Below are positions 3,011 through 15,440 of a DNA stretch of 64,000 nt, in pieces. This DNA is from Rikenellaceae bacterium (lineage in GTDB: Bacteria; Bacteroidota; Bacteroidia; Bacteroidales; UBA932), in the NCBI GenBank assembly GCA_039683455.1, contig JBDKRJ010000020.1:190278-254277 (forward strand), given 5' to 3'. The notes under the pieces were generated by a model. The model was not told the origin of the DNA, made no database searches, and was given only the letters and a program-made list of their open reading frames with translations. The translations under genes were made by a program, and so were the position numbers. Position 1 is the stretch's first letter. Every line of letters begins with the position of its first letter.

Positions 3011-4720
3011 CTATTTTACAATAAGGGGCGATTCTTTTTGTACATTCAGAGGTTTGTTGTTGATCTCTACATCTTCTACCAAAATTGATATAGGATATAT
3101 TATTGACGTTGGAATCTCATCCTGATATAAAAAGTTAACGGCTGCCTGTTCTTTGCTTACACCAAGTACTCTTTTGAGTTTAGTAAAAGGTACAGGTGCA
3201 ATTTCAGAACCGGTAACCAGTGTTTCCGAGCCGTCCTTTACAGATACCTTATAGATGTACTGATCATCGGTGTTATTTGCTATTTTTCTTACTATATAGG
3301 CATAATCCAGGCCCTCTTCAACAGCTGCTTTAATAAGATCTGCCTTAAGCTCCGCAGAAGTGCTGCCGTTTGGAGCGCTAACTACAAGTGTTCCGGGAGC
3401 AACATTCAAAACAACTGCTCTTGGTCTGACACCAAATCTCATGCTTCCTGTGGATGCCTTGATCTTTTTGGTAGGAACGCGGCTGCTTAGAAGTGTCTTT
3501 AGTATCCCGTTTTCAATCAGTTTTACCTCTTTTACCGGAGAAACACCCTGAGCATCCAGATTATAGTTGCCAATAAGGGATACGTTGTTAAAATCAGTCA
3601 TGTCAGTTTTATTCGAAACACTTAATCTGCTGTCGATCACTTTCTTGTTTATTCTCTCTTCCAAAGGTTTAACGTCTCTTTTAGAGGAGATGTTTTCTAC
3701 TCTGGCCACAGTCGCCATAACTTGAATAGGTTTTCTGAAAGATATTATGCCGGATGCTGAGATCAGATTTTCCGAAAGAATCGAAGCAGCAGCTGCGTCT
3801 TCGAACAGAACAGGACCCTGATAGTATTCCTCCATAGTTGATGCTACCTGCAATGCCACCAGCTTGTTTGAAAATTCATTGACTCTGACTTTCAAAACTT
3901 CTGCAGAAGGTAATTTGTCAAACGATTTTGCAAATATAGTTTCCTGATCCTTGATAATCTGGCCTTTCGTATTTCTCACTTTACCCTTTAGTGTAATGGA
4001 AACATAACTTACAGGCTCTTTAATTTTAGTTCCCTCTGTAGATTGATAGTAATAAACTGTCTCAATACCGTCAATTTCGACACGGGAATCAATAATTACA
4101 GGATATTTTGCAAATTCCCTAGACAGAGTATTAGAAAGATCTTCATAAGACTTCTTGTCAAAATTGAAAGCGGGAAGAGTCGGTGTATAAACCTCAACTT
4201 TGGTCAGAGGAAGCATATCGGGTAAAGATTTCTCTTCATCTGTGAGTGTAGCTGTCTTAACACCATTCTTCTTTGAGTTGTAAACCTCAACAGCCAGTTT
4301 GTAAGCCACATCCGAGGTCTGCCAGAAATTACGCCTTAACTGATCGTAATTATTGTCACGCGCAGTGAAGTTAGGCGACATTACACCGTTGCCGGAATAT
4401 GAATAGTCACTCGAAAATTTATTATCCCCAACATAGAGATTAACCGAATGTATTCTCTCTTTAGGGCTCTCTTTTGTAGACAATATTGCGCCAAGTGAAC
4501 TGCTGACAGAGATGTATTGGGTCTCCCCAACTGTATAAGCTACAAAGAAAGGAGCCGGAGAGTCAGGTAGTATAAGTTCTTTTTTACTGCGATCCATCTC
4601 ATCCTGCATGGCTTTGAACAAAACGTTTTCGTTTGTCTGACCATACATAGATGCTGCAGATATGAGTTGAGCGAGTATTAATGTATAAATGAATCTCATT
4701 AATGTATATGTGTATCTCAT
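3011..4720 (-). CDS. TldE/PmbA-like metallopeptidase-family protein with signal peptide
   Basis: 569-aa ORF directly downstream of, and similar in size to, the TldD-like gene. The N-terminus is hydrophobic (MRFIYTLILAQLISAASMYGQ if the ATG at 4699 is used). There is no HExxxH motif, as expected for the non-catalytic partner. The assignment rests mainly on pairing and on general similarity to the neighbour. Confidence 0.65.
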   Translation of the reverse strand: MRYTYTLMRFIYTLILAQLISAASMYGQTNENVLFKAMQDEMDRSKKELILPDSPAPFFVAYTVGETQYISVSSSLGAILSTKESPKERIHSVNLYVGDNKFSSDYSYSGNGVMSPNFTARDNNYDQLRRNFWQTSDVAYKLAVEVYNSKKNGVKTATLTDEEKSLPDMLPLTKVEVYTPTLPAFNFDKKSYEDLSNTLSREFAKYPVIIDSRVEIDGIETVYYYQSTEGTKIKEPVSYVSITLKGKVRNTKGQIIKDQETIFAKSFDKLPSAEVLKVRVNEFSNKLVALQVASTMEEYYQGPVLFEDAAAASILSENLISASGIISFRKPIQVMATVARVENISSKRDVKPLEERINKKVIDSRLSVSNKTDMTDFNNVSLIGNYNLDAQGVSPVKEVKLIENGILKTLLSSRVPTKKIKASTGSMRFGVRPRAVVLNVAPGTLVVSAPNGSTSAELKADLIKAAVEEGLDYAYIVRKIANNTDDQYIYKVSVKDGSETLVTGSEIAPVPFTKLKRVLGVSKEQAAVNFLYQDEIPTSIIYPISILVEDVEINNKPLNVQKESPLIVK

Positions 4721-4750
4721 TTCTCTAATTTATTTATGATTATTAAGGTA

Positions 4751-6430
4751 TTACGGACGAGGCAAAAGTGCTGGTGTAACTGTCGGTTTTGCCTTCTTCT
4801 GCAACTCAACCTTATTTACCAGAATTGTTGGTGAAATAGCTGTTACAGGAACATTTCCGGAAGAAGCTCCGCAAGTCCCGGTAAAGATTTCAAAATCACC
4901 TCCTGCAAACTCTATGTTCGAGAACATAGAGAGCGGTGTTCCAATCATGTCAACACCTCTTACTAACTCATCCTCTTTGCCATCTACAAATATTTTGTAA
5001 ACTTCGAGAGGGGTTACATTAAATGAATTGGCTCCGGTTCTCCCTGTTTGGGTAAAACCACCTGTAACAGCCTTAAAGAAGTAACCATACTCCTTACCCT
5101 GCTTCTTAGCCTCATCTATCAGTAATTTCCTCAACTCTGCATCTGTTTTGTACTCGTTTGTCTCAACGATAAGATTAGACTGACGCGATGTTGGATCATA
5201 TTCAAATTCTGCTCTTGCATGGCCATTTGATTTTGGAAAACCATCTAGTCCCGTACGGGTCATAAGAAAATTTTCAAGTATGCCGTTCTTAACAACCTCA
5301 ACCCTTTCGCCTCTTACTCCCTGATCATCAAAAACATAATAGCCATTCAAAGGGTTTCCATGATACTTCTTAAGAGTAGGATCCATATAAACGCTCAGAC
5401 TTTTCGGCAAAACACTTTCACCAACCATGTTTTTAAATGTCTGACCATCCGTGTCGCTCTTCATCTTCTGACCCTCAACCCTGTGACCGAAAATCTCATG
5501 GAAGAATACGCCGGCAGCAGATCCCGACAATAGAGCAGGTCCTGTGTAAGGCTGAACCAAAGGGGCAACTTTCAATTTTGACAGTTTAGCAGACATCTCT
5601 TTGATATCCTTAATTATCACAGCTTCTGCCGGAAGCTCATCCAGCGAAAAAGCAAAGTAACTTTTGTATAATGGAAGCTCCATTCCGTCATCAGCCATTG
5701 TTATAGCCCTTATACTCATGGAGATATAAACCCTGTTCTCAGCAATTTCTGCACCCTCTGTAGAAACGAAATATTTGCGCCAGATCTTATAACTTAAAGT
5801 TGTATTGGAAGAAATTACATCTTTGTTTTCTGCAAAAAGGCCGCTGTACTTATTCAGCTTCTTTTGCCACAGATCCATATCCATTGCAATTTTATCCTCT
5901 TTAATTGCCGGCTCAAAATACTTTTCAGCTTTCACTTTTGTAAAGTCCGGTGATTTATCTGCATTTTCTACCTGAACACCCTTTTTCGCCTTTGCTCTTT
6001 CAAGGCTGTTTTTTGCAAACTTGTAACGGTTATTAACCTCTTCTTTAATTATCTCTCTAAATGGCTCAAGTCCATTTTGAAGATCCTTAGGCAGAAGAAC
6101 AGTCGGAGGTCCCATAAATCTGTTAATAGACACCCCGTTTTGCAATTCGTGAAAATTATCAAACTCAGGAGTGCCAATTCTGATTTGTGGAACAAAAATC
6201 ACCTGTTTTTCCTCTTCGATGGTGTTAGTTGCACCCATTGAAGAGCGGATTACTCTCGAGTAATTGTCAATTACCCTATAGTTCATATAATAAGGAGGAT
6301 ACTCCCCTTTCTGAAGAGTTGCCATCTGGCTATTCAACTCCCCTTTCAAAAGATCCAGCATTTTGTCCTGTGCCGGCAGTTGCAAGGCAACAAGTGCCAG
6401 CAGCGATATTAATAAAATTTTAAATTTCAT
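4751..6430 (-). CDS. TldD-like zinc metallopeptidase with signal peptide
   Basis: 559-aa ORF with a signal peptide (MKFKILLISLLALVALQLPAQ) and the TldD-type metal site HEIFGHRVEG (HExxxH). A Gly-rich C-terminal region (GTCGASSGNVPV) is typical of the family. Confidence 0.8.
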   Translation of the reverse strand: MKFKILLISLLALVALQLPAQDKMLDLLKGELNSQMATLQKGEYPPYYMNYRVIDNYSRVIRSSMGATNTIEEEKQVIFVPQIRIGTPEFDNFHELQNGVSINRFMGPPTVLLPKDLQNGLEPFREIIKEEVNNRYKFAKNSLERAKAKKGVQVENADKSPDFTKVKAEKYFEPAIKEDKIAMDMDLWQKKLNKYSGLFAENKDVISSNTTLSYKIWRKYFVSTEGAEIAENRVYISMSIRAITMADDGMELPLYKSYFAFSLDELPAEAVIIKDIKEMSAKLSKLKVAPLVQPYTGPALLSGSAAGVFFHEIFGHRVEGQKMKSDTDGQTFKNMVGESVLPKSLSVYMDPTLKKYHGNPLNGYYVFDDQGVRGERVEVVKNGILENFLMTRTGLDGFPKSNGHARAEFEYDPTSRQSNLIVETNEYKTDAELRKLLIDEAKKQGKEYGYFFKAVTGGFTQTGRTGANSFNVTPLEVYKIFVDGKEDELVRGVDMIGTPLSMFSNIEFAGGDFEIFTGTCGASSGNVPVTAISPTILVNKVELQKKAKPTVTPALLPRP

Positions 6431-9177: not shown

Positions 9178-9585
9178 TCAACATTGACGAAGCAAATTCT
9201 TCATCGTTTCCATTTGTTCGGGAGTAACAGATGTGTTGTTTTCATTACTTTTTATGAAATCCTCTATAACCATCTTGGCTTTATATGGGTAATTAAGCTC
9301 AATTAGATCTTTTGCAACAGTTTCGGCAACATTATATTGTTTACATATTGAATATGAGTAGTTTATCCACTCTATTACTTTGCCTGCTGCTTGATCCTTG
9401 TTATTGTAGAATTCTAAATAATCCCGATAGCCATTTAAAATATAACCCGCATAATATCTGTAAATAATTGTTTTAAAACCCATTATCATTTTCACAGCCA
9501 TTTCTGTGCTTTTTATATCTTCTCTACGTTTGCCACCCTCCTCTGCCATTTTATTTATACCGGTGTTAAATGTGGCATTAAACAT
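9178..9585 (-). CDS. Hypothetical protein P5 (small, Tyr/Asn-rich, helical-looking), last gene of the uncharacterised block
   Basis: 135-aa ORF with an ATG start, 53 nt downstream of P4 on the same strand. It has no signal peptide, no TM segment and no motif I recognise. Confidence 0.6.
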   Translation of the reverse strand: MFNATFNTGINKMAEEGGKRREDIKSTEMAVKMIMGFKTIIYRYYAGYILNGYRDYLEFYNNKDQAAGKVIEWINYSYSICKQYNVAETVAKDLIELNYPYKAKMVIEDFIKSNENNTSVTPEQMETMKNLLRQC

Positions 9586-9638
9586 GATATTTTCTTCTTC
9601 AATTTTGGAAGCAGAATTTGTCTTTATATAATTAATAC

Positions 9639-10649
9639 TTAACTAAACTTCCCTGTAATCTCCGAAATATTGAATTTCCCGCCAATAGTCTTAATCTCAA
9701 TCTTTCCGTGGAGGATGTTGAAGAAAAATTCGCGTATCCTTTCAAATGAGAGTGGAACAGGTTCTCCTTTTGCATCAAGACCAAGATCGAACTCTTTAAG
9801 CAGTTGTGAGCCCAGACTTGCGGCAGTCAGCAAGAAGTGGTTCTGGAATTTTTCCACATCCAGCAGATCTGCAGCGAGCACCTTGCCAACAATGGTGTAG
9901 CTGCACAGGGTCTTCTGTGTGTCTTCGTCTGTGAGGGTTGTTTTAACCTCGTCGGAATCGAGATTCATCTCTATACGTCCAGAGTTTGGCGACTGAGGAG
10001 TGCCTTTGTAGAGTGAACCCAGGTCCGCAAGACATAGGTTGTAAAATTTGGTTCCGGGTACGGAATTAATCTTCTCTATTGAAAATGCACTTGGCAGAAG
10101 AATTGTTATCTGATCGGCAACTTTTACAGAGGGGCTGTTGAATGTTCCCACCAGAGAGTTGGTGAAGTCTATGCTCTGTGTTGCAAATACCCCTCCAATT
10201 ACCACACAGTTAACCAGAATAACTTCATCTGCATAAATGCTGCCGGCAACAAATGCGTTGAACAGAGTCAGCTTTTTGGCGTTAATGTCTGAGCAGAATG
10301 TAAGGTTGCATTTAGTGGATCTTGAAACAATGGAATTTGCTGTTCCAACACTTTTTCTGAACGTGATATCTCCCTCTGCGTCTGTGTTGATGTACATTTC
10401 AAGTTGAGTAAAAACAGCTCCCTGAAACTCTGCATTTCCCTGTTGTATTTCGAGTTTGTAGGAGTAAACTGCACCCTCGATTACAATATCTCCCTGAACA
10501 ATAATGTTGCGGTCCAAATCTGCAATCTTTTCCGGCAGAATGGAACCTTTCACTAAATTATCTTTAAGTTGGATATTTGTTTCGTTAAATCGGATTTCCT
10601 TTATTTCTTTCATAGTTGAATATTTTTCTTTACTGAACACAGATAACAT
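9639..10649 (-). CDS. Hypothetical protein P4 with a bactofilin-like beta-helix repeat region
   Basis: 336-aa ORF. Residues ~45-180 show short repeats of G-[DN]-x-hydrophobic strands: QGDIVIEGAVYSYKLEIQQGNAEFQGAVF...EGDITFRKSV...FVAGSIYADEVILVNCVVIGGVFATQSIDF. The ATG at 10649 overlaps the P3 stop by 20 nt. An alternative ATG lies at 10613. Confidence 0.7.
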   Translation of the reverse strand: MLSVFSKEKYSTMKEIKEIRFNETNIQLKDNLVKGSILPEKIADLDRNIIVQGDIVIEGAVYSYKLEIQQGNAEFQGAVFTQLEMYINTDAEGDITFRKSVGTANSIVSRSTKCNLTFCSDINAKKLTLFNAFVAGSIYADEVILVNCVVIGGVFATQSIDFTNSLVGTFNSPSVKVADQITILLPSAFSIEKINSVPGTKFYNLCLADLGSLYKGTPQSPNSGRIEMNLDSDEVKTTLTDEDTQKTLCSYTIVGKVLAADLLDVEKFQNHFLLTAASLGSQLLKEFDLGLDAKGEPVPLSFERIREFFFNILHGKIEIKTIGGKFNISEITGKFS

Positions 10650-11667
10650 TTATTGAACTTAAATCGGCTATTTTCCGGATTGTCTCCCGCACCCTCACAG
10701 AGTGCTCATAGTTTGAATAATATTTTTTGTCGAGCTCGGAGTTGAAATAGAGCCGAAGGTAATTTTCTGACTCCTTGGACATCTTTTCCCATTTGTACAC
10801 ACTGGAGGACAACCTTTGAAAAAGGTCGTCGCCCGGAAGTTTATCTTCAAGGCCATCCAGAAAGTCCGATACGTAAAGATTTTTATCTGTTTGCCGGCGA
10901 ATGTTTGAGGTTTCAACATAACAAATCGGCGAGAATAACATGCCGCTTTTGTATTCGTTTAACATACTATTCTGGATGGAAATGTTTAATCGCTTCTGAT
11001 GCATAAGGAAAAGCTTTGCCTTGTCAATAGTGTCCAATGCCCTTTTCTTGGTGGCCGAAGTGCTTATTTTTGAAAGCAAATTATTGCTTTCAGCCCCAAA
11101 AACAGATATTGTGTTTATCAGGTTATTATTAAGGATACGAACAATATGATTATCGGTATCATTTTTAAATTCAAAGGCGGGTTTGTCAACTGTGAAGATC
11201 CGGTTGGAGAGTTCCCGGTCAAGGTCGTCAAAGATTTTGCGGTACCGGCCGGAAATTCTAAGATAGTCCTGCTCCATCTGATCTTTCTTTGACAATGCGG
11301 CTGTCATAAACTCTCTGAGCATCATCAACTGAGACTCAACTTTTTGTGCTAATTCCGTTACCTGCTGACTTATTTCCGAACGAATGTAGCTGAAGAAACC
11401 GTTGACTATAGAATTGGCAATCTTTATAGAGTTCCGATCTTTTGATTCAATTTCCGCAGTTTCCGTAGCTACAACTGCGGCAGTGAGCAAATCTACGCTC
11501 CTTTCGCAGACTCTTACGCTCGATTCAAACTGTTCTGTGTCTACCTCGATATTTATCTGGACAGGAATGTCAACAGTAACTGATTTCGATCCTCCTTTTT
11601 TAGAAGAACCATACGAAACTTCCACCGTTTTACTCACTGTCTCTGTATAGCTTTGTTTGTAACTCAT
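10630..11667 (-). CDS. Hypothetical protein P3 (paralog of P2)
   Basis: 345-aa ORF with an ATG start 4 nt after the P2 stop. It shares a long helical core with P2 (SIVNGFFSYIRSEISQQ ... MEQDYLRISGRYRKIFDDLDRELSNRIFTVDKPA). Confidence 0.8.
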   Translation of the reverse strand: MSYKQSYTETVSKTVEVSYGSSKKGGSKSVTVDIPVQINIEVDTEQFESSVRVCERSVDLLTAAVVATETAEIESKDRNSIKIANSIVNGFFSYIRSEISQQVTELAQKVESQLMMLREFMTAALSKKDQMEQDYLRISGRYRKIFDDLDRELSNRIFTVDKPAFEFKNDTDNHIVRILNNNLINTISVFGAESNNLLSKISTSATKKRALDTIDKAKLFLMHQKRLNISIQNSMLNEYKSGMLFSPICYVETSNIRRQTDKNLYVSDFLDGLEDKLPGDDLFQRLSSSVYKWEKMSKESENYLRLYFNSELDKKYYSNYEHSVRVRETIRKIADLSSINVICVQ

Positions 11668-11671
11668 AATA

Positions 11672-12589
11672 CTATACTTTAACAGTAAAATATTTATTAG
11701 ACTGAAACAACTTCATAGCCATCTCTTTTTCCCTCGCCGACTTTCCAGAGTCTGACAGTTGTCTGCTGAATTCGCTCAAAATCTCCATTTCTGCAGGGTC
11801 GTCTGCTTTCCATTCCATGTTTGAAAATTCAGAATACAAGTCTTCTGAGATGGTTGTCTTTGCAGTATCGTCTAGTTCGGTGTCGGTAAGAACAATTTCT
11901 ATGTTCGTCCTTCCCGTTCTGTCGCGGTTGAGCTCACAAACTATCACCGGGATATAGACTTTGCCAAGCTTTAATGGGTAATCGTCCACCAGAATTTTGT
12001 CGGTAAGTTTTTTCTGAATATTAATCTCGTGGATAAAATTGGCCATAGAGTCGATTACTTTGAGACCACGCTGTTTTAAGTTAGAGGCAATTATCTTCTG
12101 GCTCACCGATATCGATTCCAGTTGTGTAATTGGAATTGTTGCTGTCAGATACTTCGTTCTGTTGGAAATTTTTCCTATCTCTCTACGTACTAAGTTGATT
12201 GATGGTTTGTCCAGTTCAAAAACTCTTGTTCGCAAATTTGAATTAAGCCCATCAAAGAGTTTTGTGTATCTTCTGGAAATCATATTGTAGTCCCGCTCCA
12301 TTCTACCTTTAATGTTTAGCAGTACCCTCTTTTGCTGGGCAAGCTGCATAGTCTGTGAATCCACATCGCTCTTGTATTTTGCAAGTTTCTGTGAAATCTG
12401 TGCGCGAATGAGGGAGTAAAAGCCATTGTTAACATTGTCGCAAACATAATCGGAAGCTCTCTCTTCTGCTGCAATAACAGCCTCCTGCATGGAGACCATT
12501 GCTCCCGTTGTAAGGCTCACGTTATTGGAGACATTCCCCATTTCATTTGCCAACGGCTGCGTATCTATGCGATAGTTAAATGTTGCCAT
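11672..12589 (-). CDS. Hypothetical protein P2 (paralog of P3)
   Basis: The ORF-track start at 12664 is a TTG. The first ATG (12589, MATFNYRIDT...) gives 305 aa and overlaps the P1 stop by 14 nt. The core NVNNGFYSLIRAQISQK ... MERDYNMISRRYTKLFDGLNSNLRTRVFELDKPS matches P3. Confidence 0.8.
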   Translation of the reverse strand: MATFNYRIDTQPLANEMGNVSNNVSLTTGAMVSMQEAVIAAEERASDYVCDNVNNGFYSLIRAQISQKLAKYKSDVDSQTMQLAQQKRVLLNIKGRMERDYNMISRRYTKLFDGLNSNLRTRVFELDKPSINLVRREIGKISNRTKYLTATIPITQLESISVSQKIIASNLKQRGLKVIDSMANFIHEINIQKKLTDKILVDDYPLKLGKVYIPVIVCELNRDRTGRTNIEIVLTDTELDDTAKTTISEDLYSEFSNMEWKADDPAEMEILSEFSRQLSDSGKSAREKEMAMKLFQSNKYFTVKV

Positions 12590-14450
12590 AATCTTCCTGG
12601 GTTTCTTCAAGTTCTGCAAGTGCTTTTTTTGCAATTTGCGGAAGATTAATAGAGAAATGATCAAAAGTAATATCCTCTACACTTGGAGCTGGAGGAATTT
12701 CTGAAATCTTTGCAAAAAGAGGATTTACTGCAATGAGCGGTTTTCTGCGTTCATCCAATTCATGCATTTCGCCGGCCGCAACAGCAGTGTCCCTGGAATT
12801 TCCATCACGGAGCATCGCATCATAGTAATCTATGTGCTCAAATTTCTCTGCCTTAAGGTCTATGTCCTCTTTTAAATGATCCATATAATTTTCGAACTCC
12901 GTCTGCACCTTCTGGAACTCCTTTGACTGCATTTCGAATGCTGCCAGAACTTCTACTGAATTCCCTTTAAGTTCAACAATGGTAGAATCGAGAGATCCGT
13001 TAGATTGCTTCATTGTCTCCTCTGTCTTTTGAAGAGAGATCATAGTATTGTAGGCAGCAATGTAATCGCCCAGAGTTGTACGCATAAGATTTACCAGATC
13101 TACGCTCTCGGCTCTGTTTCTGCCGTAAAAATCCTCAGTGTCCTTATGCCACTGGTTCAGATAGTTGATTTTCTGATCTTTTATATGATTGTAAATTTTT
13201 AGTCTCTCTATGCGCGTCTCTCGCATAAGATTCAAAACTATAGGGGCAACTATCTCTTCGTGAATCTGGTGTATTCCAAAAGGAAGGTTTGTTGTACTGC
13301 CGTCCTCTGCCACCCAGGTGTCTGAAAGCAGGTCGTATCTCACACGGGAACTGCTTTTAAGCTGGAATGGGACATACTCCTGAAACGATTCGTCATAACT
13401 GAAGTTTTCGTTACGAATTCTCTCGATTTCTGCACTTTCCAGGACAGGAGAGTAGTGATTGTACGGCGATCTTAATATTTTGAAAAGCACTTTGTTAGAC
13501 TCGAAAACCATTTTGTCTGTGGATGCAACTTTAAGGGCAGAAATGGCCTGAACAGAGTTGGCCATAGTAATCATGAGCCCTTTTAATACATCTTCGAACT
13601 GGGCTGTATGCTTGGAGAGGGAGTCTTTAAGCTTATTCAGCTCCTGGAACTTGGCTATATGGTTATCATACTTTGCCGTATCAAAGACTTCAGTAACAGG
13701 GTAGCCTTCCGGAACTTCGGAAGTAGAAAATTCGCGGATAAAGTTGTGATATGTGCTATTATTCACCACCAATGGCAGCGAAACTGAAGTTATATCCAAA
13801 TCATCCATGCAAAAAGAGATTGAGCGGAGAGCTCTCTCCAGGGACCCGAAGTAGTCGTGATGGCTGAGGTGTTGCATAGATTGTGAGTACTGCTCTGTGT
13901 CAATTTTCTCAGTCTCATTTGAGGTTTCTACGATAGGAGCCTCTTTAGAAAGTTTTTCCAGTTCATCAATTTTCTCAACAAGCAAATCGTTTTGTCTTGA
14001 AAGCTGAAGTTTGAATTCGGCCTCTTTTGTTACACCAGTATGGTCAACGATAAAACTTCTGTTATCATACTTGACCTGAGTTGCAACAGGAACATAAGCA
14101 ACGCCTAATTTACTCACCTTGTAATCACGAAAAATTTCTTTGTGTTGTTTCTGCAGTTCTGCTATTTTCTGGTCAATCCCTGCTATTTTCTTCAGCAGTC
14201 CCTTCTCTTTCAACAAAAAATAGATGAAAGGAATAATCAGAATGCCAGTTACCCATTTCCAGATGCCGGCTCTTGATATCTCCCCATCTAAGATTTTTTT
14301 CTCTTCCTCCAGAGCAGCAATGTTCTTTTCTATCTTCTCCTCTTCCTGAACTATTTTTTCTGCTGCCTGCTGATAGTAATTAAGCAATATCTTCGCCTGG
14401 TCCTGGTAGATATTGCTGGACTCTTTAAAAATTTTCCCTTTCATAGTCAT
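12576..14450 (-). CDS. Hypothetical protein P1: N-terminal coiled coil, one TM segment, ~540-aa uncharacterised domain
   Basis: The ORF-track start (14459) is a TTG. The first ATG is at 14450 (MTMKGKIF...). There is a Glu/Lys heptad-like stretch (EKIVQEEEKIEKNIAALEEEKKILDGEI), then the hydrophobic segment IWKWVTGILIIPFIYFLL (about 14211..14264), then a second coiled stretch (IDQKIAELQKQHKEI). I did not see a Walker A, HExxH or nuclease motif. Confidence 0.8.
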   Translation of the reverse strand: MTMKGKIFKESSNIYQDQAKILLNYYQQAAEKIVQEEEKIEKNIAALEEEKKILDGEISRAGIWKWVTGILIIPFIYFLLKEKGLLKKIAGIDQKIAELQKQHKEIFRDYKVSKLGVAYVPVATQVKYDNRSFIVDHTGVTKEAEFKLQLSRQNDLLVEKIDELEKLSKEAPIVETSNETEKIDTEQYSQSMQHLSHHDYFGSLERALRSISFCMDDLDITSVSLPLVVNNSTYHNFIREFSTSEVPEGYPVTEVFDTAKYDNHIAKFQELNKLKDSLSKHTAQFEDVLKGLMITMANSVQAISALKVASTDKMVFESNKVLFKILRSPYNHYSPVLESAEIERIRNENFSYDESFQEYVPFQLKSSSRVRYDLLSDTWVAEDGSTTNLPFGIHQIHEEIVAPIVLNLMRETRIERLKIYNHIKDQKINYLNQWHKDTEDFYGRNRAESVDLVNLMRTTLGDYIAAYNTMISLQKTEETMKQSNGSLDSTIVELKGNSVEVLAAFEMQSKEFQKVQTEFENYMDHLKEDIDLKAEKFEHIDYYDAMLRDGNSRDTAVAAGEMHELDERRKPLIAVNPLFAKISEIPPAPSVEDITFDHFSINLPQIAKKALAELEETQEDYGNI

Positions 14451-14463
14451 TGTCGTCAAAAAT

Positions 14464-15264
14464 TTAATATCCTGTTAGGTTTTCTTTCCTTTTAGCATCT
14501 TTTTGCTGAGGAGTCAGTTTCCGGTCATAATCATATATTGCACTCTCCCACTCTCCATAAATGGCATTCGGCAGAACGATAAATTTTTTCCCCCATAAAT
14601 CATGAACTTTGTCAACCTCTGCTTTTCTGTCGGCAATAGTTCTCTTTTCAAAAAGGTGAGAAAAATCATTCAGATTGTCACCCATTAACATTACAATTTT
14701 GAAATTTTCTGCCACCTGCAGTCTTCTGGGCTCTTTGGTGGATGTGTCCGTTTGAAACAACATATGTTCTTCATCTGCGTTAGGTAAACATAATTTTTTA
14801 AGATTGAGAAGCGTCGTTTTTACATCGGATGTATTTCTGTTGCTTATGTAGAATATTGTAATATTTCGTTTGGCTGCCCATTGAAGGAAATTCACAGCAC
14901 CGGGTATTCCTGTTGCAGCAGACATACTGACCCATTTTTTCCATCCGACAGAGTTGTACACTTTTCCCTCCTTAATATCCCGGGCCTCCATGTAACTGTT
15001 GTCAATAATCGTTTCATCCAGATCTGTGATTATTGCATATTTTTCATTTGGTTGCCTGACAGGTAGAATTGCTTCCAGATAAGTACGTGCAGTATTGAAT
15101 GCCTGATAGCATAAAGCCCTGTATTCTGCAGATGTCTGATGCCATAATACGGGATAAGTTATAAGGTCTATCTCCCTCTGTGCCGACGAGCTGGTTTGGG
15201 CAGTATCCTGAGCCTGGAGACTATTAAACAAAAAAATTGAAATAATTAAAAATACTCTTTTCAT
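14464..15264 (-). CDS. Class C acid phosphatase / 5'-nucleotidase, e(P4) family (HAD superfamily)
   Basis: The track start is a TTG. The ATG at 15264 gives MKRVFLIISIFLFNSLQAQ (signal peptide). HAD motif I is present (ITDLDETIIDNS), as is the C-terminal GDNLNDF motif typical of class C phosphatases. Confidence 0.85.
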   Translation of the reverse strand: MKRVFLIISIFLFNSLQAQDTAQTSSSAQREIDLITYPVLWHQTSAEYRALCYQAFNTARTYLEAILPVRQPNEKYAIITDLDETIIDNSYMEARDIKEGKVYNSVGWKKWVSMSAATGIPGAVNFLQWAAKRNITIFYISNRNTSDVKTTLLNLKKLCLPNADEEHMLFQTDTSTKEPRRLQVAENFKIVMLMGDNLNDFSHLFEKRTIADRKAEVDKVHDLWGKKFIVLPNAIYGEWESAIYDYDRKLTPQQKDAKRKENLTGY

Positions 15265-15440
15265 CCTATAAAAATTTATGAATGTAAAGATAAGATATTT
15301 GACAACATATAGACAAGATAGGCCTGCCAAACGATTGTTTTTAAAAATCCCTGCACCAAATATTACTAAACGGAAATAACACCTGCTGTCGTTTTAATCT
15401 TCACAACATAAATGACTTTTTTGCCATAAACATCTGATTA

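Follow-up and report, generated by a model that had tools for sequence, protein, structure and literature searches.

In Bacillus subtilis, the SPFH protein YdjI, also called SamI, is recruited by a pair of membrane proteins, YdjG and YdjH (PMC8581546; bioRxiv 10.64898/2026.02.06.704340). PspA, an ESCRT-III-like polymer, in turn requires YdjI to reach the membrane (PMC8581546; bioRxiv 10.64898/2026.02.06.704340; PMC11237479). Comparative work has led to the proposal that band-7 partners aid the assembly of complexes beneath the membrane (PMC11237479; PMC10936438). Here we describe an operon of four genes, P1 to P4, that in most genomes follows an SPFH gene and a gene for a protein with four transmembrane (TM) helices. 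The copy from which the analysis started lies in a 64,000-nucleotide stretch of DNA from Rikenellaceae bacterium (contig JBDKRJ010000020.1, positions 190,278 to 254,277), hereafter called the window.

A second kind of assembly also bears on this operon. HflK/HflC, flotillin-1/2 and prohibitin-1/2 form cages in which the members of a paralogous pair alternate. The flotillin complex is described as a membrane-attached dome (PMC13000311).

The original prediction, made from the letters of the window and its open reading frames (ORFs), proposed a translationally coupled module of five structural proteins, P1 to P5, that had not been described before. We find that P1 to P4 form a strictly conserved operon and that P5 does not belong to it. 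No account of the operon, of its proteins or of this combination of genes was found in the literature searched; the system appears undescribed. What might it do? We suggest, with a probability of roughly 0.35, that the operon encodes a non-enzymatic lattice, attached to the inner membrane from the cytoplasmic side, with a role in membrane maintenance or organisation.

Gene layout and conservation

All five ORFs lie on the reverse strand, and the coordinates and junctions first given for them are exact. P1 (12576..14450; 622-624 amino acids) encodes a putative membrane-anchored hub protein. It is followed by P2 (11672..12589; 305 amino acids), which encodes a long-helix protein, by its paralogue P3 (10630..11667; 345 amino acids), by P4 (9639..10613; 324 amino acids, or 9639..10649 with an upstream ATG) and by P5, a 135-amino-acid ORF (9178..9585) outside the conserved module. 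P1 and P2 overlap by 14 nucleotides and P2 and P3 are separated by 4; P3 and P4 overlap by 20, or are 16 apart if P4 begins at ATG 10613, and 53 nucleotides separate P4 from P5. Public gene calls for the same species give 624, 305, 345, 324 and 135 amino acids, and the Rikenellaceae metagenome-assembled genome of origin contains proteins with 100% identity. Of three candidate starts for P1 (TTG 14459, ATG 14450 and ATG 14444), the last is likely, giving 622 amino acids, because homologues begin MKGKIF. For P4, the start at 10613 is favoured because all homologues have about 324 amino acids and the public calls agree; the ATG at 10649 is unused by homologues.

Is this arrangement kept elsewhere? 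In a set of 185,579 species genomes, one genome per species, 257 species have a relative of P1. The best 80 of these 257 loci were examined; 8 of them run into a contig end, leaving 72 that are informative. The order P1-P2-P3-P4 and the common strand are kept in all 72. A second scan, seeded with the most divergent branch of P1 (35-48% identity), yielded 63 informative metagenome loci, and this order is kept in all 63. P1 to P4 are linked far more often than chance would allow. Across loci, the median P1/P2, P2/P3 and P3/P4 junctions are 14, 5 and 12 nucleotides, and ATGA overlaps are common between P2 and P3. The operon is real, and its tight spacing and frequent gene overlaps fit the translational coupling that had been proposed.

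The fifth gene fares differently. None of 160 related loci contains a homologue of P5. Its protein cluster has two members, the sole named one coming from the same species of metagenome-assembled genome (MAG), and it is seen only on contigs of its own species, always after P4. Its only match is to the type III effector model PF04518, weak and below threshold (E 1e-3). P5 is thus ruled out as a component, and is, to judge by its distribution, a lineage-specific ORF. The unit is not one of five genes: it has four genes here and six in most genomes.

Searches against Pfam, PADLOC, NCBIfam and PHROGs gave no match at family threshold for any of P1 to P5, and PDB sequences contain no relative, in keeping with the claim that no product belongs to a known family. 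When sets of P1, P2 and P4 orthologues were scanned member by member against the family libraries, no core family rose above threshold. Profiles of P1, P2, P3, P4 and the SPFH protein recovered nothing useful from the PDB. As had been supposed, none of the products shows a recognisable enzyme domain; among the six operon proteins, none is matched by a model for an enzyme, an NTPase or a defence protein. Profile-profile comparison detected no homology between P2/P3 and P1, between P4 and P1 or between P4 and P2/P3; so far as sequence profiles can tell, P1, P2/P3 and P4 are mutually unrelated.

Unnamed as they are, these proteins are numerous. A database clustered at 90% holds at least 2816 homologues of P1, at least 1904 of P4 and at least 201 of P3, nearly all unnamed or 'hypothetical'. 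Those with names are called 'hypothetical' or, for P4, also 'polymer-forming' or 'CcmA', so that the system is unannotated everywhere, as expected of one not previously described. P1 and P4 are 59-89% identical to the window copies, P2 38-80% and P3 30-82%.

The hosts are overwhelmingly Bacteroidota, the label of 77 of the best 80 loci. They include Bacteroidales, Alistipes, Muribaculaceae, Prevotellaceae, Chitinophagales and Flavobacteriales, among them Capnocytophaga sputigena, C. granulosa, Dysgonomonas termitidis and Labilibaculum filiforme. The operon is also found in human-gut Bacteroides, for example as ALJ57734.1 ('MULTISPECIES [Bacteroides]'), which looks like an accession of B. cellulosilyticus WH2, and in B. 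stercorirosoris. One locus outside the phylum comes from a Melioribacteraceae MAG, presumably a member of Ignavibacteriota. Two further MAG contigs carry the labels Saccharibacteria and Pseudobacteroides and may be mis-binned. In a six-gene locus of the distant branch (L086), P4 shares a 90%-identity cluster with a protein from a Victivallales MAG, and the operon therefore reaches the PVC (Planctomycetes-Verrucomicrobia-Chlamydiae) group.

The SPFH and four-TM genes

In 67 of 75 informative genome loci, an SPFH gene and a gene for a four-TM protein immediately precede P1 and share its strand. The pair is also upstream of P1 in 37 of 65 informative loci of the distant branch. The order in most genomes is therefore SPFH, four-TM, P1, P2, P3, P4. 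The SPFH protein (416-480 amino acids) carries a Band_7_1 domain (PF13421, E 6e-34), the Pfam family to which YdjI presumably belongs, followed by a glycine-rich linker and four to five zinc ribbons (DZR or Zn_Ribbon_1). The four-TM protein, of about 236 amino acids, has four TM helices and a helical tail of about 100 amino acids; it matches no family in Pfam or NCBIfam.

The original prediction had offered a membrane scaffold as one reading of the module. The genes upstream of P1 in most orthologous loci speak for that idea, but the clade to which the window belongs (L001, L005, L006, L022, L023, L048 and L064) lacks the pair. A clade from human-gut Bacteroides (ALJ57734.1; B. stercorirosoris) lacks it as well. 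There, a gene for a 622-amino-acid protein with Sel1/TPR repeats takes the place of the SPFH and four-TM genes, about 43 nucleotides upstream of P1 on the same strand (7079-8947 in L146; likewise in L097 and 27 other human-gut loci). A Band_7_1 and zinc-ribbon gene thus forms part of the operon in orthologous loci and not in the window. In one locus from an uncultured Rikenellaceae (L032, 13220-14350), a second Band_7-type gene stands just after P4, besides the upstream copy.

P1, a putative membrane protein

P1 begins with a helix rich in Glu and Lys, followed by a hydrophobic stretch, a conserved and mostly helical domain of about 500 amino acids and a variable C-terminal tail. The hydrophobic segment, read from the sequence, spans residues G62-L80, GIWKWVTGILIIPFIYFLL (14211..14267, reverse strand). 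A single TM helix had been proposed for P1. By Kyte-Doolittle analysis, this holds for the window and for most orthologues, but orthologues of the L003 type have no such segment and distant representatives have two TM helices, which would form a hairpin. Because the segment is absent in some proteins and doubled in others, P1 probably has both of its large parts in the cytoplasm.

The conserved domain contains the invariant residues P121, D136, P172, P226, E399, P403, R416, Y420, K427, Y430 and R446. Beyond its own clade, P1 is 71-76% identical to the homologues listed. Against representatives clustered at 50% identity it gives 283 matches, mostly fragments, with about 22 of full length.

The C-terminal tail is nearly missing in the window clade; elsewhere it is acidic and of low complexity, or carries zinc ribbons or an L7/L12 C-terminal domain. 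Low-complexity tails occur on both proteins, acidic on P1 and proline-rich on one variant of P4, and zinc ribbons are found on P1. That P1 and P4 carry the same kinds of optional C-terminal addition fits membership in one shared complex. Loss of the P1 tail was considered as a companion of SPFH and four-TM gene loss, and was set aside because the correlation is merely partial.

Three further observations concern these fusions. Five P1 orthologues (P0125, P0127, P0159, P0177 and P0222) have an L7/L12 C-terminal domain (PF00542, with a best E of 1.3e-17) added at the C-terminus, a P4 orthologue (P0326) likewise ends in a PF00542 domain, and three distant relatives of P1 have zinc ribbons at the N-terminus.

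The paralogues P2 and P3

P2 and P3 had been called diverged paralogues, and BLASTP bears this out: they share 31% identity over 263 amino acids (E 9e-29). Their genes are 2-11 nucleotides apart or overlap by 4 across loci, so the two proteins are probably made in equal amounts. A profile of 57 P2 sequences found no match in the PDB or Pfam.

The AlphaFold2 model of P3 is elongated, with a predicted local distance difference test score (pLDDT) of 75 and a predicted template modelling score (pTM) of 0.26. At its N-terminus, residues 3-42 (11542..11661, reverse strand) form a putative amphipathic beta-hairpin, modelled at pLDDT 55-68 and also indicated by conservation and a period-2 signal. It has a glycine-rich turn, and in its second strand conserved V or I residues strictly alternate with polar ones; P2 lacks the hairpin. 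An unbroken helix of residues 45-171 follows (11155..11535, reverse strand; pLDDT about 87-94 over residues 51-150), then a predicted helix at 192-235 and a small alpha/beta C-terminal domain. The structure search that had been recommended for the module was made with this model: Foldseek returned no match at E <= 0.001 in the PDB or BFVD. The top hits, none of them significant, were stems of beta-pore-forming toxins, which reflect the geometry of a long hairpin only. One P3 orthologue (P0074, in L169 at 712-2028) has a response-regulator receiver domain of about 95 amino acids at its N-terminus. It comes from one metagenome contig of 3.4 kb, is more probably an assembly chimera than a rare fusion and was not used.

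The hydrophobic period of the long helix is 3.65 in P3 and 3.66 in P2, against 3.5 for a heptad repeat; the periodicity power was matched by 0 of 500 shuffles for P3 and by 6 of 500 for P2. The long helices are therefore not heptad coiled coils. A period near 11/3 is that of helices packed straight or with a right-handed twist, or of an amphipathic helix lying on lipid, and not of a classical heptad coiled coil.

A more specific picture can be drawn, one we consider distinctly improbable. P2 and P3 would alternate in the manner of HflK/HflC or flotillin-1/2, and so close into a large barrel or dome that sits on the inner membrane, its wall built of amphipathic helices about 19 nm long with the 11/3 period. 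The P3 hairpins would form its cap or collar, P1 its foot and P4 a beta-helical rim, with the SPFH domain supplied in trans or, as in the window, dispensed with. If true, bacteria would have a class of membrane-enclosing protein cage that is new and independent of SPFH, spread as a mobile cassette.

Could P2 and P3 instead be an exported two-component alpha-helical pore-forming toxin, with P1 and P4 as accessory proteins? The systems to compare are YaxAB and the ClyA and Hbl families. Two paralogues of about 300-345 amino acids, both with very long helices and both lacking a signal peptide, would suit such a pair. Yet Pfam and the PDB give no match to ClyA, HBL or YaxAB and Foldseek gives no hit, and neither P2 nor P3 shows a hydrophobic tongue or TM segment. 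The SPFH and bactofilin-like partners have no signal peptide either, and YdjI, the studied relative of the former, is cytoplasmic. The module is moreover found alike in free-living, digester and commensal taxa. A toxin pair is highly improbable.

P4, a distant likeness to bactofilins

The N-terminal half of P4 is bactofilin-like, and its C-terminal half is highly conserved. P4 as a whole has a mean column identity of 81%, it is essentially free of internal indels and many of its invariant residues are polar. The putative beta-helix covers roughly residues 13-170 (10104..10577, reverse strand), where Bactofilin and DUF7305 match below threshold; short G-x-V/I repeats typical of beta-helices are present. 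The window protein scores 14.4-14.6 bits against PF04519 (E 0.04-0.05), for which the gathering cut-off is 27.9. Of 29 P4 orthologues, 25 match the same model, all below threshold and at best with E 1.7e-4. The description of P4 as bactofilin-like therefore stands as a recurrent weak resemblance, but not as a family assignment. Databases have made the same connection: the Joint Genome Institute labels some orthologues 'CcmA (bactofilin family)' and UniRef labels one 'Polymer-forming protein'.

These labels and the weak similarity behind them suggest another role, in which polymers of P4, placed by P1 to P3, would localise cell-wall or division enzymes as a bactofilin-type cytoskeletal or morphogenetic system. 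The very high conservation is like that of cytoskeletal proteins, and loss of YdjG or YdjH in B. subtilis leads to shape defects under stress (PMC8581546). We nevertheless find this reading quite unlikely. The module is patchy among close relatives of the same shape and moves horizontally; no peptidoglycan enzyme is conserved beside it; the bactofilin match is sub-threshold; and the Pfam bactofilin model, 98 positions long, leaves uncovered a further half of P4, the conserved C-terminal one of about 150 amino acids.

Horizontal transfer and conserved non-coding ends

How did the operon reach its hosts? The P1 of the window is 72% identical to that of Melioribacteraceae, 71% to that of Chitinophagales and 69-70% to that of Flavobacteriaceae, compared with 60-65% to that of Alistipes, a member of its own family. 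The closer match to distant taxa, together with unrelated flanks, argues for horizontal transfer of the cassette.

In one sub-clade of six-gene cassettes, conserved non-coding DNA marks both ends. A leader of about 300 nucleotides abuts the start codon of the SPFH gene (L010 5695-5998; L020 5688-5992; L024 5698-6001; L042 5687-5984; L047 1813-2072). It is 83-87% identical between loci at which the genes are only 53-69% identical, and it holds repeated motifs resembling CCGAC(A/C)CAC. Indels interrupt the sole ORF that crosses it; the leader may act in regulation or fold as a structured RNA. The 3' element, of about 240 nucleotides, begins a few nucleotides past the P4 stop codon (L024 13112-13350; L010 13171-13410; L020 13201-13438; L042 13221-13449; L027 7493-7726). 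At its start is a 20-bp hairpin with compensatory changes at eight pairs and with no U-tract after it. The element could serve to stabilise RNA, as a variant kind of terminator or as a site of recombination. Conserved non-coding ends suggest a mechanism of transfer or of regulation.

In two loci the cassette has, on its 'wrong' side, the 3' element and the leader joined to each other (L024 5483-5719; L010 13511-13748), and direct repeats thus flank the six genes. In L020, from Labilibaculum filiforme, a tyrosine recombinase gene (4506-5615) ends about 70 nucleotides before the leader. The direct repeats and the adjoining recombinase suggest a mobile or tandemly duplicated cassette. The window contains neither the leader nor the 3' element. 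Two side observations belong here. About 1.9 kb downstream of the cassette in L010 (13713-15589) contains no ORF of 70 or more amino acids on either strand, with a G+C content of 33% and no ambiguous bases. Rfam finds no riboswitch or known RNA at the module; in a Flavobacteriaceae locus it reports a DUF805b cis-regulatory RNA (RF02914, 38.8 bits; L003 12172-12203, reverse strand) that is unrelated to the module.

Signs of mobility invite comparison with defence against phage, which had been raised as an alternative from the start. In an abortive-infection-type system, a membrane sensor complex would free P3, which bears the amphipathic beta-hairpin, or P2 and P3 together, to permeabilise the inner membrane from inside. 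A sporadic distribution (257 of 185,579 species genomes), the greater identity of the window P1 to Chitinophagales and Melioribacteraceae (71-72%) than to Alistipes (60-65%), the conserved cassette ends and the recombinase adjoining the L020 cassette all suit such a system. So do the lack of any enzymatic domain and the P3 hairpin, whose residues alternate between hydrophobic and polar and whose model drew non-significant Foldseek hits to toxin stems. That hairpin is modelled with low confidence, however (pLDDT 55-68). PADLOC matches none of the six proteins. The 138 nearest flanking proteins match 148 Pfam families, none of them in more than three neighbours; the families listed are mostly housekeeping (DapB, LpxK, YceG, RNase R and glycosyl hydrolases are examples), and no defence or mobile-element theme emerges. 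A tblastn search with P4 found no copies on plasmids or phages, and the conservation of P1 and P4 far exceeds what is usual in defence genes. On balance, the housekeeping flanks, the absence of a PADLOC hit and the unusual conservation of P1 and P4 make an abortive-infection system unlikely. Should the operon be a defence system after all, it would be one made wholly of structural proteins.

Neighbouring genes in the window

A gene for a class-B acid phosphatase (PF03767) with an apparent N-terminal signal sequence lies at 14464-15330 of the window on the reverse strand. It shares its strand with P1 and ends no more than about 20 nucleotides from the alternative P1 starts, and for this reason may be co-transcribed with P1 to P4 in the window clade. 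In a few related loci this phosphatase gene immediately precedes P1, and in L023 it lies downstream of P4 at a distance of about 3.3 kb. Downstream of the module, both the window (4751-6430 and beyond) and L001 (10962-14380) have a pair of TldD/PmbA-family genes. The shared pair suggests vertical inheritance of the four-gene form within the window clade.

A proposed lattice beneath the membrane

How might these proteins work together? The contacts between them, their polymerisation and their physiological role are all inferred in what follows, as is filament function itself. In the lattice that we favour, P1 would act as anchor and hub, putting a short hydrophobic segment or a hairpin into the membrane. 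P2 and P3 would associate through their helices of about 125 residues, along a nearly straight hydrophobic stripe, to form an extended wall or a layer lying on the membrane, and P3 would contribute its amphipathic beta-hairpin. P4 would supply a bactofilin-like, self-associating beta-helical module and, in its conserved C-terminal part, a domain for interaction. In loci that have them, the SPFH and four-TM proteins would recruit or nucleate the assembly, much as YdjI/SamI does with YdjH and YdjG for PspA. The window clade would have lost this pair, its core working alone. The lattice could serve to protect the membrane under stress or to organise its microdomains.

Several observations weigh against this interpretation. 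A tblastn search with two Band_7_1 and two four-TM orthologues found neither gene in the 64-kb window, for which the main clue from gene context is therefore indirect. The core proteins have no detectable homology to PspA/ESCRT-III, to flotillin or to any scaffold family, and P4 never attains the bactofilin threshold. The 59-89% identity of P1 and P4 across orders would also suit an unrecognised enzyme. The AlphaFold2 model of P1 (pLDDT 50) was unusable and was set aside; it is poor because the admissible alignment spanned only 71-90% identity. What probability remains belongs to explanations not yet thought of, among them that P1 or P4 is an enzyme not recognised as such.

Whatever its function, the operon merits attention. 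P1 and P2/P3 have no relatives in curated libraries, and P4 is at best a very distant relative of bactofilins; with 59-89% identity across orders, P1 and P4 rank among the best-conserved accessory proteins that one is likely to meet. The hosts include experimentally tractable and medically relevant bacteria, with cultivable ones from gut and mouth among them: Bacteroides, including B. stercorirosoris, the oral Capnocytophaga sputigena and C. granulosa, Alistipes and Muribaculaceae. The linkage to SPFH genes ties the operon to membrane surveillance and makes it a concrete candidate for a set of SPFH effector partners beyond PspA.

Comparison with known systems

Is the operon a variant of something already described? 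So far as sequence searches and gene context show, it belongs neither to bactofilins, ESCRT-III, defence systems or pore-forming toxins nor to the SPFH-PspA family. Like bactofilins (PF04519; BacA, CcmA), P4 has an N-terminal half that weakly matches the model in 25 of 29 orthologues and contains G-x-V/I repeats; unlike them, it stays below threshold, has the extra conserved C-terminal half and is always encoded after P1 to P3. The operon resembles the known and candidate anti-phage systems of PADLOC-DB v2 in being a multi-gene cassette with membrane components, patchy spread and horizontal transfer. Hits in PADLOC-DB v2.0 are nevertheless at chance level only (E 0.003-0.008, to unrelated models), and the cassette lies outside defence islands, judging by its 138 nearest neighbours.

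The resemblance to SPFH cages is one of analogy only. Like HflK/HflC, flotillin-1/2 and prohibitin-1/2, the operon has two paralogous subunits with very long helices and a genomic link to SPFH, and the helix period of P2 and P3 lies near 3.67 rather than 3.5, as it seems to in those cages. In contrast to the subunits of those cages, P2 and P3 have no SPFH domain and no structural match, and the SPFH protein of the operon is a separate polypeptide.

The SPFH protein is the sole operon component with a studied relative, YdjI/SamI, which leaves pspA-ydjGHI (samGHI) as the system to compare most closely. The polymer at the centre of that system has no counterpart here that we could detect. PspA_IM30 and Snf7 are absent from the cassette, whose P1 to P4 are of unrelated families: the window P1, P2 and P3 gave no hit to either Pfam model at E <= 1, neither was among the families found in 57 P2 orthologues and 23 P1 relatives, and profiles of P2, P3 and P1 drew no PspA, Vipp1 or ESCRT-III chain from the PDB. 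As a monomer, with a pTM of 0.26, P3 is modelled by AlphaFold2 with one unbroken helix at 45-171 (pLDDT about 90) in place of an alpha1-alpha2 hairpin; in an oligomer the fold may differ. The four-TM protein has none of the domains of YdjG and YdjH (TPM; zinc ribbons and NTF2-like; PMC11237479), and the window locus is without the SPFH and TM genes altogether. What the two systems share is their design. Each joins in one operon a soluble SPFH protein, one or more membrane proteins and one or more long-helix cytoplasmic proteins; none of the matched domains is enzymatic; and the SPFH protein of the operon, like YdjI/SamI, has a low-complexity linker and a C-terminal zinc finger or zinc ribbons (PMC8581546; PMC11237479). 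The operon is at most like the SPFH-PspA module in context, and is not a member of it.

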